Source: Escherichia phage AV110
Sequence record: OR352940.1
Reading direction: 5' to 3' (one strand)
Length of the DNA stretch: 64,000 nucleotides
Positions 28,380 to 58,073 of this stretch are shown here, piece by piece (the stretch's first letter is position 1; the number at the start of each line of letters is the position of its first letter). A model generated the notes under the pieces. That model saw only the letters and a program-made list of their open reading frames with translations, searched no databases and had not been told where the DNA came from. Made by a program: the position numbers and the translations under genes.

Positions 28380-29381
28380 TTATTTCAGTAAAGTTACTTC
28401 AGAGATTTCCTCCCAACCATCTTTATCAGTTGAAATAAAATCTGCTACATAAAGAGCGGTACGTAATGATACATTGCGAAGACGAGATACATTAGCCTTC
28501 ATCCAGGACAATGCTTTATACGTTTCTGCATCAGTCAGACCACGTTTCTGCATCATGTCAGTAGATAATATTACATCTTCAACTCGAACCATAATCTCTT
28601 CATTAGAGTGTACTCCAAGGTCGAGATACACTGAGCGAGATACTAAAGCTTGAAGGTGTGGAGCAAGTTTCGAACCGCGTTCTAACTCTTTATCGATATC
28701 AACGTTTGTAATGAAAACGATAGTACCTTCAAACTCAAATTCTTTATCAATACCCTTATCATCGAGATAAGATGACGCAGTGCTCCAACAAACTTTGCGT
28801 TTATCTCCAGTATCTAATGCTGCTTTAAGAAGATTCAAGATGTCCATATCTGAGAATACGTCAACGTCATCGATTAAGAGAACGCTGTCTGCATCACGGT
28901 TGAGCCAAAGTTGTTCGTAAAGGCCAATACCAGAGATTTTACCATTAATGCTTTTGTATTTGATGAAACCATTATCATTAGCATTATTAAGTGCTTTATC
29001 CAGAGAATACGTCTTACCAATACCGGCTGCACCTGAAATAATGAGTGAACGAATTTTGCCATCGATAATGCCATTCGTCATCATGTTCATTACTTTAAAG
29101 CGTTTGTTGATACGAGTTTTCATATCTTCAGTGCTTTCAACAACTGCAACTGGTGATGTCTCAACTCCTTCCATTACGATGTCTGATTTGAAGACCCATA
29201 CTCCACGTTCAGAACCATCAATCATAACGAAAATTTTACCGTCACCTAAGTGGGAACATTCAGGATTAAGCTTTGCTGGGAACCAGGTCTTTGTGGCAAC
29301 ATAAGAACCAGAGATTTCGTTATTACGATAGATACCTTTTTTGATTTGAACGTTGAACATTTTATTCTCCAATTTACTCAT
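28380..29381 (-). CDS. P-loop ATPase (333 aa)
   Basis: Walker A GAAGIGKTY, Walker B LLIDDVD. Confidence 0.65.
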   Translation of the reverse strand: MSKLENKMFNVQIKKGIYRNNEISGSYVATKTWFPAKLNPECSHLGDGKIFVMIDGSERGVWVFKSDIVMEGVETSPVAVVESTEDMKTRINKRFKVMNMMTNGIIDGKIRSLIISGAAGIGKTYSLDKALNNANDNGFIKYKSINGKISGIGLYEQLWLNRDADSVLLIDDVDVFSDMDILNLLKAALDTGDKRKVCWSTASSYLDDKGIDKEFEFEGTIVFITNVDIDKELERGSKLAPHLQALVSRSVYLDLGVHSNEEIMVRVEDVILSTDMMQKRGLTDAETYKALSWMKANVSRLRNVSLRTALYVADFISTDKDGWEEISEVTLLK

Positions 29382-29477: not shown

Positions 29478-29759
29478 TTACTTATCGCACTTAGCAACAT
29501 AATTAGGCATATCACAGAATACAGAGCGAGTAACTACTCGGCCCTTTGTCCATGCTTCAGTCGCTTGTCCGGCCGTGCTATTAATATAGCTTGATTTAAT
29601 GTTCTCAATACCTTGAGAATGTGATGCATTTACCGAACCATTGGAAGGCCCAGAAGACTGGTTACCACCAGCTCCTGCACTACCGCTGGCTGCACCCGTG
29701 GTAGCACCAACAGAGAATGTCATCATTACTGCGAATAAACCAATTGCTAATTTTTTCAT
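29478..29759 (-). CDS. secreted Gly/Ser-rich protein (93 aa) with signal peptide
   Basis: N-terminal MKKLAIGLFAVMMTFSVGA; late-promoter motif directly upstream. Confidence 0.55.
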   Translation of the reverse strand: MKKLAIGLFAVMMTFSVGATTGAASGSAGAGGNQSSGPSNGSVNASHSQGIENIKSSYINSTAGQATEAWTKGRVVTRSVFCDMPNYVAKCDK

Positions 29760-29790: not shown

Positions 29791-30780
29791 TTATTTATAG
29801 TAAGAATTATGATTTTCGAGATAGACTTGCTCAAGGAAATCATCCCAGAAACTCATATCTACTTTTTGTTGCATACCATTCTTGGCAGCTTGTTCTGACG
29901 CATGTTCAACTTGGTCAACGATATCTTCTAGGAATTCTTGTACAGTTTTAAACGTATGTTTACCAAGCTTAACATCGAGAATAAATGGAGCATCCTGAAG
30001 TGGGTAAACCAGGTCGCCGGTTTTGTAAATTTCTAATAGTTGAAGTCCACCACGACATGCATGACTCAATGCTTTCCAGTCAATACCTTCGTTAGCTTCT
30101 GCCTTACGAGCACGTTCACCGTAGTTCTCTTCCAGTTTAACCAGGATGGCATTGAACTCTTTATTGGTTAACGTATCTTGGAATTTACGGTCTAACAGAT
30201 TATAGAATGTTTGCTTACCTGTTTTCTCGTTTTCGGTTTCAACCCACGAAGCAAATTCACCTACAGGCAGAACATTCTTCATATGTGATAAACGAATTAC
30301 TGCACCATTATCAAAGTATTGTCCCCATTCATTAGAACGTTTAAGGGCTTGACGAAGAACAGCCAGTCGAGAACCCTTGACACCGTATTTAGAAGCTTGC
30401 TTACGGACATACCCTAAATAAGATTTCATGTTAGTGGTATAGAAGCGAGACCTGTTATCTTGAATATACTTCCATACATCAGGCAAATCAGATTTAACTA
30501 CTAGACTTTGCGGAGTGTGAAGCATATCTAATGCGACGGTTTCACCATCCGCAGCTAGTTTAAAGAAATATTTGAGACTATACAATTCATGGTCTACGTC
30601 GTCTTTTGTGTTCTTAGAAGATGTGTTATTCGTGTTCTTGCTCATGTGTTCTTTAACGTTACCGGTCAAAATATCACGAGCATGAGGGATATAAATTTCT
30701 TTAAAATCTACGTCAGATTCAGGAGTAGACGTTCCATAAAGGTGGCTACCAAAGTAGCCTTTCATAATTGTTTTCATCAT
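29791..30780 (-). CDS. Pol-beta-superfamily nucleotidyltransferase-fold protein (329 aa)
   Basis: N-terminal GYFGSHLYGTSTPESDVDF fits the GS-x9-13-DxD NTase signature; helical C-terminal region. Confidence 0.6.
   Translation of the reverse strand: MMKTIMKGYFGSHLYGTSTPESDVDFKEIYIPHARDILTGNVKEHMSKNTNNTSSKNTKDDVDHELYSLKYFFKLAADGETVALDMLHTPQSLVVKSDLPDVWKYIQDNRSRFYTTNMKSYLGYVRKQASKYGVKGSRLAVLRQALKRSNEWGQYFDNGAVIRLSHMKNVLPVGEFASWVETENEKTGKQTFYNLLDRKFQDTLTNKEFNAILVKLEENYGERARKAEANEGIDWKALSHACRGGLQLLEIYKTGDLVYPLQDAPFILDVKLGKHTFKTVQEFLEDIVDQVEHASEQAAKNGMQQKVDMSFWDDFLEQVYLENHNSYYK
29792..29799 (-). promoter_or_regulatory. T4-type late promoter (TATAAATA on minus strand)
   Basis: Plus-strand TATTTATA about 33 nt upstream of the 29759 start; GAGG SD between. 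Confidence 0.45.
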
Positions 30781-31250
30781 TTAGCCTTATATTCAAGAGT
30801 AGGACAGACTTTTTCTTTACGAGCTTTAAGGTATTCACCTATTAATGATTTCTTACGTTCAATAGGCTCAAGTCCATTTTTAATTCGTTCTTGGTTTTGT
30901 GCAATGAGCTCAACTTCTTTATAATACTTCCGCTCTCTGTATAAGTCGATTAGCCACGGTATGCCTAATACTAAAACTATAGAAATACCAACACATAATG
31001 CAATGAATAAAACACCTACACCAATTGAGGCCGGAACTAATGTCCATAAACTACTAAAGACAAAGAATTTAGTTAAAATTTCCTGGCCAACGATTGTGGC
31101 CGCTGCTAAAATCGCAAATCCAATAATCGAAACAAACAATACCGGGAGAAACGTTTTCCAAAAATAAGCACACAACGTTTTCGGGCGATTCCATGTACTA
31201 TTAAACGCGGTATAAATTTTAAAGTGCCAAGAGTTTTCATTGATAATCAT
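30777..31250 (-). CDS. integral membrane protein (157 aa)
   Basis: Multiple hydrophobic segments; stop overlaps the NTase start (ATGA). Confidence 0.55.
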   Translation of the reverse strand: MIINENSWHFKIYTAFNSTWNRPKTLCAYFWKTFLPVLFVSIIGFAILAAATIVGQEILTKFFVFSSLWTLVPASIGVGVLFIALCVGISIVLVLGIPWLIDLYRERKYYKEVELIAQNQERIKNGLEPIERKKSLIGEYLKARKEKVCPTLEYKAK

Positions 31251-31259
31251 AATAATTCC

Positions 31260-31802
31260 TTATTTCAAAGTTGGGATAATAGAATCGAGATAAGCTTTAA
31301 GAGCAACTGCCTCATCTTTGTCTAATGTAATGATATGTTGACGAAGGTCATCAATTTGGCGAATAACTACGACATCACCGTCTTCATAAGAAGGATTAAC
31401 GCCTAGGACTGTTGTATAGTCAGGGCGGTCCTGATTTGTAATAAAAGCATTACGGCATTTAGCCCATTGAAGTTTGGCCTTTTTGGCTGTTTCAGATTCC
31501 ATTAATTCTTTCACCTTATTGACAAATGTTTTCCAATTATTAATAGAAAAACATTCGTCTTCAGTTTCGATATTAACCCCACTATAAAGTCCGTGATAAA
31601 AACGAACTTGAAGGTCTTCATCAATGTTAATTACAGATGCATGGCCGGGTGGATTGAGTTTCAAAATCTTGTCCAGTTCCATAGGAAGAATAGTAGCAGC
31701 ATCATCTTCTTGTGTCAGAACATACACATAACCACGTTTTTCGATACATAAATCACCAAACAACTCGGTTGTTTCAATTACAGTTTTCATATTATTCACC
31801 AA
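31260..31802 (-). CDS. hypothetical protein (180 aa)
   Basis: ORF. Confidence 0.55.
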   Translation of the reverse strand: MVNNMKTVIETTELFGDLCIEKRGYVYVLTQEDDAATILPMELDKILKLNPPGHASVINIDEDLQVRFYHGLYSGVNIETEDECFSINNWKTFVNKVKELMESETAKKAKLQWAKCRNAFITNQDRPDYTTVLGVNPSYEDGDVVVIRQIDDLRQHIITLDKDEAVALKAYLDSIIPTLK

Positions 31803-56340: not shown

Positions 56341-58073
56341 TGGAAATGATTAGCAGTAGCCTTAATTGGTTCGTGGGTGTTGTCGAGGACAGAATGGACC
56401 CATTAAAACAAGGGCGAGTTCGAGTGCGAGTAGTTGGACTTCATCCCGCACAGAGAGTACAAGGCGACGTGCAGGGTATTCCTACAGAAAAACTTCCATG
56501 GATGACTGTTATTCAACCTATTACGTCTGCATCAATGTCAGGTATTGGTGGTTCTGTTACAGGTCCTGTTGAAGGAACTCGAGTATATGGTCATTTCTTA
56601 GACAAATGGAAAACAAACGGGATTGTACTTGGTACATATGGTGGAATCGTACGTGAAAAGCCTAATAGACTTGAAGGTTTTTCAGACCCGACAGGTCAGT
56701 ATCCGCGTCGTTTAGGTAATGATACGAACGTATTAAACCAAGGTGGTGAAGCTGGTTATTATTCGAACTCTAACGTAATTCAAGATAACAACTTGGATTA
56801 TGGTATAAACCCAGATGATACAGATTTAGCAAATATTCCAGAAGATGATGACCCTAATTTTACAATAACAGAAATGTTACGTCGTGATGAAGGTCTTCGT
56901 GATAAAGTGTATTGGGACCATCTCGGGTATCCTACAGTAGGTATTGGACACCTTATCGTAATGGAAAAGACCCGAGATATGTCTCGAATTAATAAATTGT
57001 TATCTGATCAAGTAGGGCGTGAAGTAACAGGAAATCCGGGAACTATTACATTAGAAGAAGCAACAGCGTTATTTGAGAAGGACCTTGCTAAGATGCAGAA
57101 AGACATTCGTTCTAATTCTAAAGTGGGTCCTGTTTATGCTAAAATGAACAGATCTCGCCAAATGGCATTAGAAAACATGTGCTTCCAAATGGGCGTTGGT
57201 GGTGTAGCAAAATTCAATACTATGCTTAAAGCAATGGCCGAAGGTGATTGGAAAACTGCATACAAATCTGGGCGCGATTCATTATGGTTCCAACAGACTA
57301 AAGGACGCGCTTCACGTGTAACAACAATTATTTTAACCGGTAACATGGAATCATACGGTGTTCCTGTTAAAACACCGCCTTCACCAGGAGTTGGTGCCGA
57401 TTTAGTTACTAGAAATACTGATTCAGAAGACCCGGCTGGTCCTCCTGTTCCATTAGATTCACGCATCCTTTTTAAAGAACCGGAATCAAGTTATCGTGGT
57501 GAGTATCCATATGTTCATGCTATGGAAACAGAAAGCGGTCATATCCAAGAATTTGATGACACTCCAGGTAATGAACGTTATCGTTTAGTTCATCCAACAG
57601 GGTCATATGAGGAAGTTTCTCCGTCTGGGCGTCGTACTCGTAAAACTGTAGAAGACCTTTTTGACATCACTAATGGTGATGGGAACTTCTTGATTTCTGG
57701 CGATAAGCTTGTTAACGTTGGTGCTAATGAAATATATTATAACATGGCAGACCGCCTCCATCAAATAGACGGCAATGACACAATCTTTATTCGTGGTAAC
57801 CAATCTAAAACTGTTGAAGGCGATGGAACTCTTTACGTTAAGGGTAATATCAAAATAGTTGTTGACGGAAATGCAGATATTCTTGTTAAAGGTGATGCTA
57901 AAACTCAGGTCGAAGGGAATCATGATTACACCGTCAACGGAAACGTTAAATGGACCGTTAATGGTAATGTTGATATGACTGTTGCCGGGGATTGGGCAGA
58001 AACAATGTCTACAATGAGCTCAGTAGCTTCAGGACAATACACTGTTGACGGATCTCGTATTGATATTGGGTAA
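56340..58073 (+). CDS. 5: baseplate hub / tail-associated lysozyme gp5
   Basis: 577 aa; OB-fold N-terminus, central lysozyme domain (TEMLRRDEGLRDKVYWDHLGYPTVGIGHL), C-terminal VxGxxxxx beta-helix repeats. Confidence 0.95.
   Translation: MEMISSSLNWFVGVVEDRMDPLKQGRVRVRVVGLHPAQRVQGDVQGIPTEKLPWMTVIQPITSASMSGIGGSVTGPVEGTRVYGHFLDKWKTNGIVLGTYGGIVREKPNRLEGFSDPTGQYPRRLGNDTNVLNQGGEAGYYSNSNVIQDNNLDYGINPDDTDLANIPEDDDPNFTITEMLRRDEGLRDKVYWDHLGYPTVGIGHLIVMEKTRDMSRINKLLSDQVGREVTGNPGTITLEEATALFEKDLAKMQKDIRSNSKVGPVYAKMNRSRQMALENMCFQMGVGGVAKFNTMLKAMAEGDWKTAYKSGRDSLWFQQTKGRASRVTTIILTGNMESYGVPVKTPPSPGVGADLVTRNTDSEDPAGPPVPLDSRILFKEPESSYRGEYPYVHAMETESGHIQEFDDTPGNERYRLVHPTGSYEEVSPSGRRTRKTVEDLFDITNGDGNFLISGDKLVNVGANEIYYNMADRLHQIDGNDTIFIRGNQSKTVEGDGTLYVKGNIKIVVDGNADILVKGDAKTQVEGNHDYTVNGNVKWTVNGNVDMTVAGDWAETMSTMSSVASGQYTVDGSRIDIG

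Follow-up and report, generated by a model that had tools for sequence, protein, structure and literature searches.

What does a nucleotidyltransferase of the DNA polymerase β (Pol-β) type do in a T4-like phage, and why does its gene overlap that of a small membrane protein? Both questions are raised by a gene pair in a stretch of 64,000 nucleotides from Escherichia phage AV110 (sequence record OR352940.1; hereafter the window), a segment of a Mosigvirus (T4-like) genome in which the genes concerned all lie on the minus strand. The downstream member of the pair encodes a 329-residue protein, starting with MMKTIMKGYFGSHLYGTSTPESDVDF, which carries the GS...DxD signature that an initial annotation, made from the DNA alone, had recognised; the upstream member encodes a 157-residue membrane protein whose TGA stop codon overlaps the first ATG of the enzyme gene by four nucleotides (AAATGATGAAA). 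This ATGA overlap had also been described correctly, as had the location in the nrdC–tk region, which the shared gene order in phage p000v and T4 confirms. Many database records start the enzyme at a second ATG, one codon on, which gives a protein of 328 residues. Over the 2.5 kb around the pair, identity to many other phages, Shigella phage SSE1 and Escherichia phage p000v among them, is 95–97%. To judge by its sequence, the enzyme belongs to the RlaP family, where it falls in a separate long subfamily typified by T4 NrdC.11, and it is probably a template-independent RNA 3′-terminal nucleotidyltransferase acting in RNA repair; the membrane protein is a lineage-specific companion for which there is moderate evidence of a link to phage RNA-repair modules.

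Family, active site and fold of the enzyme

The only Pfam family that scores above its curated cutoff with the enzyme is RlaP (PF10127, 49.6 bits against a cutoff of 23; E 5.7e-13), described in Pfam as "RNA repair pathway DNA polymerase beta family"; the match covers residues 7–152 only, corresponding to profile positions 23–148 of 249. In PHROGs the protein matches phrog_388, "nucleotidyltransferase" (E 2.9e-126), and T4 NrdC.11 (NP_049709) is 77% identical to it over the full length. Of 50,697 phage records, mostly of T4-like phages where a match occurs, 1575 contain homologues; their annotation varies between nucleotidyltransferase, "RNA repair pathway DNA polymerase beta family protein" and a mistaken thioredoxin. 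This last label, which many GenBank and UniRef entries give to both the nucleotidyltransferase and the neighbouring ATPase, has apparently been carried over in error from the nearby nrdC. The gene is a common and already classified one, a copy of T4 nrdC.11, and not an orphan. A first homologue search gave only phage proteins that are 98–100% identical; the diversity of the family came from an exhaustive search of 50%-identity representatives, which returned 3255 relatives, 745 of them at E ≤ 1e-30. The best 150 of these 3255 relatives nearly all align over almost the full length of the enzyme.

In an alignment of 105 diverse relatives, residues G11, S12, Y15, S22, D23, D25, N57, Y132, R223 and R243 are invariant, and D61, D63 and D85 are conserved in at least 90%; the nucleotide-binding turn and the carboxylates of the active site, located in Table 1, are intact. 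AlphaFold2 models the enzyme with high confidence (predicted local distance difference test (pLDDT) 94.3, predicted template-modelling score 0.85) as a Pol-β fold, in which an N-terminal β/α core (approximately residues 1–100) is followed by a mostly helical C-terminal domain with a β-hairpin insert at residues 177–201. A Pol-β-superfamily nucleotidyltransferase with a helical domain is what the initial annotation had proposed, naming the absence of a nucleotidyltransferase fold or the loss of the catalytic acidic residues as grounds for giving the proposal up; the fold is predicted with confidence, and D23, D25 and D63 are conserved.

Comparison by hhalign with 13 canonical RlaPs from bacterial loci gives a probability of 93.7% (E 1.9e-7) over 119 N-terminal columns and pairs D23, D25 and D63 with the invariant D43, D45 and D82 of the canonical proteins. 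The two types have in common the Pol-β core with its GS motif and three aspartates and the presence of relatives in RNA-repair operons; in the succession of a nucleotidyltransferase core and a helical domain, the model of the enzyme may resemble the crystal structure of PfRlaP. The homology, however, extends over only some 120–150 N-terminal residues: the C-terminal halves align neither through the Pfam model nor by hhalign, and the phage-type enzyme is about 60–80 residues longer than canonical RlaP, with another C-terminal domain that includes the β-hairpin. Searches of PDB sequences with the enzyme and with the 105-sequence profile, in copies from which PfRlaP is absent, returned nothing meaningful, and neither NCBIfam nor PADLOC gave usable matches for the enzyme, the membrane protein or the neighbouring ATPase. 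In terms of fold, the top matches of the enzyme are HalB, which is the best, 3c18 and ANT(4′); the two best are nucleotidyltransferases.

RNA-repair operons of bacterial and archaeal relatives

One genome per prokaryotic species was scanned, and 156 stretches were found to encode full-length relatives of the enzyme, 33–52% identical to it, in Desulfobacterales, Nitrospirota, Alphaproteobacteria and some archaea, often on megabase contigs. Neighbours were counted in the 71 bacterial or archaeal loci that have an intact open reading frame (ORF). A canonical RlaP (PF10127, E 1e-73 to 1e-80) follows the NrdC.11-type gene directly in 16 of them (L057, L060, L065, L069, L074–L076, L084, L087, L098, L100, L105, L115, L118, L121 and L123); the kinase–phosphatase–ligase Pnkp occurs in six, Hen1 in five and Ro60/TROVE in four, and at least one of canonical RlaP, Pnkp, Hen1 or Ro60 is present in 23. 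Pnkp and Hen1 are both found near the NrdC.11-type gene in L084, L100, L125 and L127, the last two of which are without canonical RlaP. The subfamily thus has its place within recognised RNA-repair operons, and the occurrence of the two RlaP types in tandem suggests either a two-enzyme step or a heteromer.

Predicted activity and place in a repair pathway

Biochemical precedent comes from two Pseudomonas RlaPs (of P. fluorescens and P. aeruginosa), which are encoded between rtcB and rtcA (PMC12776372; bioRxiv, December 2025). These enzymes label Escherichia coli RNA and not DNA or protein, adding one or two nucleoside monophosphates (NMPs) or deoxynucleoside monophosphates (dNMPs) onto RNA 3′-OH ends; they work best with Mn2+ and favour the broken end of a cleaved-tRNA mimic, and RlaP treatment before ligation partly restores the aminoacylation of a tRNA that lacks one anticodon-loop nucleotide (PMC12776372). 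The same study lists T4 NrdC.11 as an RlaP, in cluster 5 of the PF10127 similarity network, with its function unassigned. It had been predicted earlier that RlaP replaces nucleotides removed by nucleases such as RloC before ligation, and the distribution of RlaP among jumbo phages mirrors that of RNA ligases (PMC7824862). RloC excises the wobble nucleotide, damage that is expected to thwart repair by the phage enzymes Pnk and Rnl1 (PMC3458546). In the light of these reports the description of the enzyme as uncharacterised and of its substrate as unknown, given in the initial annotation, is outdated: the T4 orthologue is named as an RlaP, members of the family extend RNA 3′-OH ends (PMC12776372), and a role of RlaP in RNA repair was already predicted (PMC7824862). 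The gene belongs to a named family with published biochemical precedent and does not represent a new kind of system.

Taken with the family membership, the intact active site, the predicted fold and the RNA-repair context of close relatives observed here, this precedent allows a pathway to be outlined. A ribotoxin of the host or of a competitor would cut a tRNA or another RNA and trim a nucleotide from it; the phage polynucleotide kinase/phosphatase (Pnk) would heal the ends to a 3′-OH and a 5′-phosphate; the enzyme would then put one or two NMPs on the 3′-OH, using a two-metal site formed by D23, D25 and D63; and RNA ligase 1 (Rnl1) would seal the break, so that a fraction of the molecules might regain function. 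The proposed pathway partner is the T4 system of tRNA repair by Pnk and Rnl1, which counters the anticodon nuclease PrrC. That classical pathway needs no nucleotide addition, and a nucleotidyltransferase would matter only for lesions in which nucleotides have been removed (PMC3458546, PMC12776372). The closest phage relative, p000v, has genes for a T4-type RNA ligase 1 and for Pnk (pseT) in another part of its genome; the proposed partners are therefore present in the phage lineage. It is by analogy that we infer the addition of NMPs to 3′-OH ends by the NrdC.11-type subfamily, its natural substrate and, as discussed below, the role of the membrane protein.

The overlapping membrane-protein gene

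The hydropathy of the 157-residue protein reveals two hydrophobic cores (approximately residues 35–52 and 76–99), and its termini both carry a net positive charge (+3 at the N-terminus, +5 at the C-terminus), which implies an N-in/C-in topology. In the AlphaFold2 model (pLDDT 88.4), helices 26–65 and 68–124 form a two-helix hairpin, and the terminal strands (residues 2–4 and 153–155) come together with short helices as a small cytoplasmic cap. The "multi-TM" label of the initial annotation holds in so far as this is a membrane protein; more exactly, hydropathy and the modelled hairpin give it two transmembrane (TM) segments. The protein has no match in Pfam and no fold match in PDB (best Foldseek E 4.8, HalA not listed). 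Its family is phrog_944, the profile of which it matches over the full length. Alignments of 28 and of 45 diverse members of this family show variable TM segments flanked by strongly conserved ends, with the motif MxIxKxSWH...LCxYFW at the N-terminus and Y[LI]KA[RK]KxKxCPxIE at the C-terminus; H9, C27, Y29, K147 and C149 are invariant. PHROGs assigns the family to the category "moron, auxiliary metabolic gene and host takeover". Comparison of the window with loci L004 and L011, from closely related Mosigviruses, gives 85% identity for the membrane protein and 99% for the adjacent nucleotidyltransferase, a difference that may reflect either a mosaic history of the membrane gene or diversifying pressure.

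Members of phrog_944 are encoded in 1289 phage records, from T4-like phages, Pseudomonas Pakpunaviruses, Vibrio ICP1 and Aeromonas and Acinetobacter phages. Of 44 phage loci, 22 preserve the order in which the membrane gene comes before the nucleotidyltransferase: in 11 the nucleotidyltransferase gene follows directly, with a −4 or −1 overlap, and in another 11 it lies 0.4–1.7 kb downstream, behind at least one inserted ORF of unassigned function. On a 164-kb viral contig (L041, 3501–4381) the nucleotidyltransferase has upstream of it not one membrane gene but two divergent copies in tandem; on a 162-kb viral contig (L037, 3501–4581) the membrane gene is truncated, and a 255-residue protein (phrog_26189) fills the nucleotidyltransferase slot between it and the NrdC.10-like ATPase. 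The proteins of 305 and 292 residues encoded after the membrane gene in L022 and L031 were tested as hidden nucleotidyltransferases or ligases, and they are neither. In T4, NrdC.11 is annotated as a nucleotidyltransferase and occupies the same slot, between the NrdC.10 ATPase and y05I/MobD.1; directly upstream of it lies, instead of the membrane gene, the HNH homing endonuclease gene mobD (L002, T4 56429–57208), exactly where Mosigviruses and other Tequatroviruses carry the membrane gene. The Tequatrovirus teqhad retains the pair of membrane gene and nucleotidyltransferase. This arrangement suggests that an invasion by mobD displaced the membrane gene in T4.

In other phages the membrane gene stands beside RNA-repair genes of other kinds. 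In six Pakpunavirus loci (L008 1942–5767, from Pseudomonas phage IQPL; L038, L040, L042, L043 and L049) it directly precedes the genes of an Rnl1-like RNA ligase (PF09511) and a Pnk-like P-loop kinase, with a metallophosphoesterase gene just upstream of it; genes for ribose-phosphate pyrophosphokinase and nicotinamide phosphoribosyltransferase come after this apparent RNA-repair cluster. The membrane gene directly precedes a polynucleotide kinase gene in L045, and Rnl2-type ligases are encoded 0.3–1.1 kb from it in L032, L047 and L050. RNA ligase is the commonest PHROG family among the 117 ORFs that neighbour the gene in 15 non-redundant loci, and an RNA-repair neighbour is present in 5 of 13 contexts (a rough binomial P of ~0.004, for which the background of 0.09 is our own estimate and the lineages are taken as independent). 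These contexts argue with moderate strength for a link between the membrane protein and the RNA-repair modules of phages, and they lend indirect support to the repair role of the enzyme. That a small membrane-protein neighbour of the enzyme also stands beside RNA-repair genes in unrelated phages is the only new point to emerge here.

In the arrangement found in the window, the enzyme would be co-transcribed and translationally coupled with a two-TM inner-membrane protein that is best regarded as a putative accessory of phage RNA-repair modules, which might for example tether or regulate repair enzymes at the inner membrane, and not as a catalytic partner. A stronger version of this proposal makes phrog_944 a dedicated RNA-repair component, in which the two-TM anchor and its Cys/His cytoplasmic cap would bring end-repair enzymes to the inner membrane or regulate them there (RlaP in the T4-like phages and, elsewhere, Rnl1, Rnl2-type ligases or Pnk). 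In this strong form the proposal is tentative, and we consider it rather unlikely.

Contrary evidence and alternative explanations

A number of observations weigh against an RNA-repair enzyme working with a membrane-bound accessory. As regards the enzyme, 48 of the 71 bacterial and archaeal loci are without a clear RNA-repair neighbour; a Pfam scan found mixed neighbours there, with no further dominant partner. Because NrdC.11-type and canonical RlaPs occur side by side in bacteria, the two are presumably not redundant, and the long type may have a distinct activity beside the canonical one. The addition of one or two NMPs to RNA 3′-OH ends (with Mn2+) is demonstrated for the canonical Pseudomonas type only, and the substrate or the product could differ in the NrdC.11 type, because its C-terminal domain differs from that of canonical RlaP. 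In p000v, the genes for Rnl1 and Pnk lie about 80 kb from the enzyme gene and are not adjacent to it. The nrdC.11–mobD.3 segment of T4 is dispensable for viability on laboratory hosts (PMC9825161), and one T4 record keeps only the last 39 codons of nrdC.11; as this segment can be lost without loss of viability, any phenotype must depend on the host. As regards the membrane gene, no nucleotidyltransferase is encoded within 3.5 kb of it in the other 22 of the 44 phage loci; the gene that follows it in several phages is unrelated to RNA repair (a primase, proteins of unassigned function); synteny within T4-like phages may be simple inheritance; T4 retains no trace of the gene, with mobD in its slot; and no homologue occurs in the 71 bacterial and archaeal loci. 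Since T4 and these loci are without the membrane gene, the enzyme does not require the membrane protein. The coupling of the two, which the initial annotation described, is real as an ATGA overlap, but it is lineage-specific and does not define the enzyme.

The same facts feed the rival explanation that survives best, in which the membrane protein is an unrelated neighbour, such as a moron involved in superinfection exclusion or lysis timing, and the enzyme repairs RNA alone. T4 has swapped the membrane gene for mobD yet keeps NrdC.11; bacterial homologues of the enzyme are never accompanied by the membrane gene, and in phages the enzyme is missing from the vicinity of the membrane gene at half of the loci; the neighbours of the membrane gene include a primase, a dNMP-kinase-like protein and proteins of unassigned function; and the "moron" category of PHROGs and the faster evolution of the membrane protein (85% against 99% identity, in one relative) fit as well. 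Against an unrelated neighbour stand the recurrence of the membrane gene by four types of RNA-end-repair enzyme (RlaP, Rnl1, Rnl2-type ligase and Pnk) in otherwise dissimilar lineages, the conservation of the ATGA overlap, and the contrast between conserved cytoplasmic termini and variable TM segments, which suggests a specific cytoplasmic partner. Independence of the two proteins is consequently a serious contender, to which we give somewhat less than an even chance.

A second rival retains the nucleotidyltransferase and changes its acceptor: the enzyme would nucleotidylylate a small molecule or a protein, as do ANT(4′) and the MNT antitoxins that AMPylate HEPN toxins, for example so as to inactivate a host toxin or an antibiotic-like compound. 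Both ANT(4′), whose acceptor is a small molecule, and the uncharacterised 3c18 have the two-domain nucleotidyltransferase fold in common with the enzyme, but the structural matches are weak (template-modelling scores 0.24–0.31, 8–12% identity), and nothing in the context of the enzyme points to antibiotic modification. The scores for MntA (12.9 bits against a cutoff of 60) and NTP_transf_2 (12.8 bits against 21) are far under their cutoffs; no HEPN family appears among the Pfam families found at E ≤ 1 for four neighbouring proteins, of which only the y05I-like one passes a cutoff; for the 93-residue and ATPase neighbours no family reached its curated cutoff. Characterised RlaPs, moreover, left E. 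coli proteins unlabelled (PMC12776372), and the context of the family is RNA repair. A small-molecule or protein acceptor is improbable on these grounds.

The fold comparison also brings up the defence system Hailong, in which a transmembrane protein and a nucleotidyltransferase are encoded as an operon of two genes and oligodeoxyadenylate is synthesised on a tyrosine primer (review PMC13434031). Its enzyme HalB (PDB 9dbh, 217 residues), which makes this tyrosine-primed oligo-dA, is the best structural match, and the pair in the window could by that token be a Hailong-like or anti-Hailong module, in which an oligonucleotide (e.g., oligo-dA, perhaps tyrosine-primed) gates the membrane protein or, in a variant, keeps the HalA channel of the host closed. 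HalB, however, has no sequence similarity to the enzyme, and there is no PADLOC match; the membrane partner is unlike HalA and resembles no other PDB entry; Y15 aligns with a tryptophan of canonical RlaP, which suggests a structural aromatic residue; and close bacterial relatives stand in operons with Pnkp, Hen1 or RlaP, without a membrane partner and not in defence islands, while elsewhere among phages the phrog_944 gene is found with those of RNA ligases or Pnk. A module of the Hailong kind is thus highly improbable.

That the enzyme is a cGAS/DncV-like or OAS-like second-messenger synthase, with the membrane protein as effector or sensor, was suggested by the generic GS...DxD signature and the adjoining membrane protein only, and its probability is negligible, as CD-NTase, SMODS and OAS profiles gave no Pfam match at E ≤ 1 and no PADLOC match, and no CD-NTase, cGAS or OAS structure is among the best fold matches. 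The PolyA_pol head domain of CCA-adding enzymes and poly(A) polymerases is likewise absent from the Pfam matches at E ≤ 1 and from the top fold matches. The second-messenger synthase, the MNT antitoxin and the CCA-adding enzyme all fail the profile and fold tests. The comparisons with CD-NTase, OAS, MNT and CCA families that the initial annotation had put forward as a check therefore support none of them, and its reading of the GS...DxD signature as a pointer to cGAS/DncV-like, OAS-like or minimal nucleotidyltransferases gives way to RlaP, the one family to pass a curated threshold.

Late-promoter motif and neighbouring genes

A T4-late-promoter-like motif, TATAAATA, is present in the region, as the initial annotation had reported; it does not lie strictly downstream of the pair, however, but across the end of the enzyme gene (its final two codons and its stop codon), 32 nucleotides ahead of the ATG of the next gene, where it is placed to drive that downstream gene for a 93-residue protein. 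In the record of phage SA79RD the identical site is annotated as a T4-late-like promoter, together with a middle-type promoter upstream of the gene block and a terminator after the 93-residue-protein gene. By itself the motif is not enriched, since the window contains 6 copies where 8.5 are expected, and a promoter and terminator scan found sites no more numerous than in shuffled controls; the statements made here about promoters are therefore based on position and on the annotation of the related phage.

Table 1. Coordinates of the genes and sequence elements discussed, numbered from the first nucleotide of the window
Feature	Position	Strand	Evidence or remark
RlaP-family (PF10127) nucleotidyltransferase, 329 residues, T4 NrdC.11 orthologue	29791..30780	-	Pfam, synteny
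GYFGS, hG[GS] nucleotide-binding turn; G11 and S12 invariant	30745..30759	-	Alignment of 105 sequences
D23-V-D25, first two metal-binding carboxylates; invariant	30706..30714	-	Alignment of 105 sequences
D61-V-D63; D63 probable third catalytic carboxylate, strand 62–68	30592..30600	-	At least 90% conserved; AlphaFold strand
Inner-membrane protein, 157 residues, phrog_944, two-TM hairpin	30777..31250	-	phrog_944 E 7.5e-52, AlphaFold2
ATGA stop/start overlap of membrane gene and nucleotidyltransferase gene (translational coupling)	30777..30780	-	Sequence
TATAAATA, T4-late-promoter-like motif	29792..29799	-	Over enzyme codons Y-K-stop
Gly/Ser/Asn-rich signal-peptide protein, 93 residues, phrog_2243	29478..29759	-	3′ of late-promoter motif
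P-loop/AAA-like ATPase, 333 residues, T4 NrdC.10 orthologue, phrog_1250	28380..29381	-	Walker A GAAGIGKT
y05I-like putative transcription factor (T4 MobD.1), directly upstream, same direction	31260..31802	-	T4_y05I_N E 1.1e-39, T4_y05I_C E 1.8e-19

The 93-residue protein has a weak YbgS-like match, below the cutoff, and is absent from T4; it is 75% identical in a relative in which the flanking nucleotidyltransferase and ATPase are both 99% identical. It looks like a fast-evolving late secreted protein and is probably outside the function of the enzyme. The NrdC.10-type ATPase gives weak matches to AAA_22, STAND and HTH_37, and its gene comes after that of the nucleotidyltransferase in the closer T4-like phages of the Tevenvirinae. 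Tequatrovirus loci have two tandem copies of the y05I-like gene. Elsewhere in the window, ARAGORN and Rfam agree on adjacent genes for tRNA-Arg(TCT) and tRNA-Met(CAT), at 50204–50383 on the minus strand.

Significance for phage RNA repair

Few accessory genes of T4-like phages are as widespread as that of the enzyme. If it refills nucleotides cut out by anticodon nucleases such as RloC, it would complete the counter-defence provided by T4 Pnk and Rnl1, and this would explain how phages survive lesions that were thought irreparable. Two leads follow from the genomic contexts: the membrane protein that stands beside four kinds of RNA-repair enzyme, and the tandems of NrdC.11-type and canonical RlaP in bacterial Pnkp/Hen1 operons. 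Should phrog_944 indeed be an anchor for such enzymes, phage tRNA repair would be spatially organised, or triggered, at the membrane.

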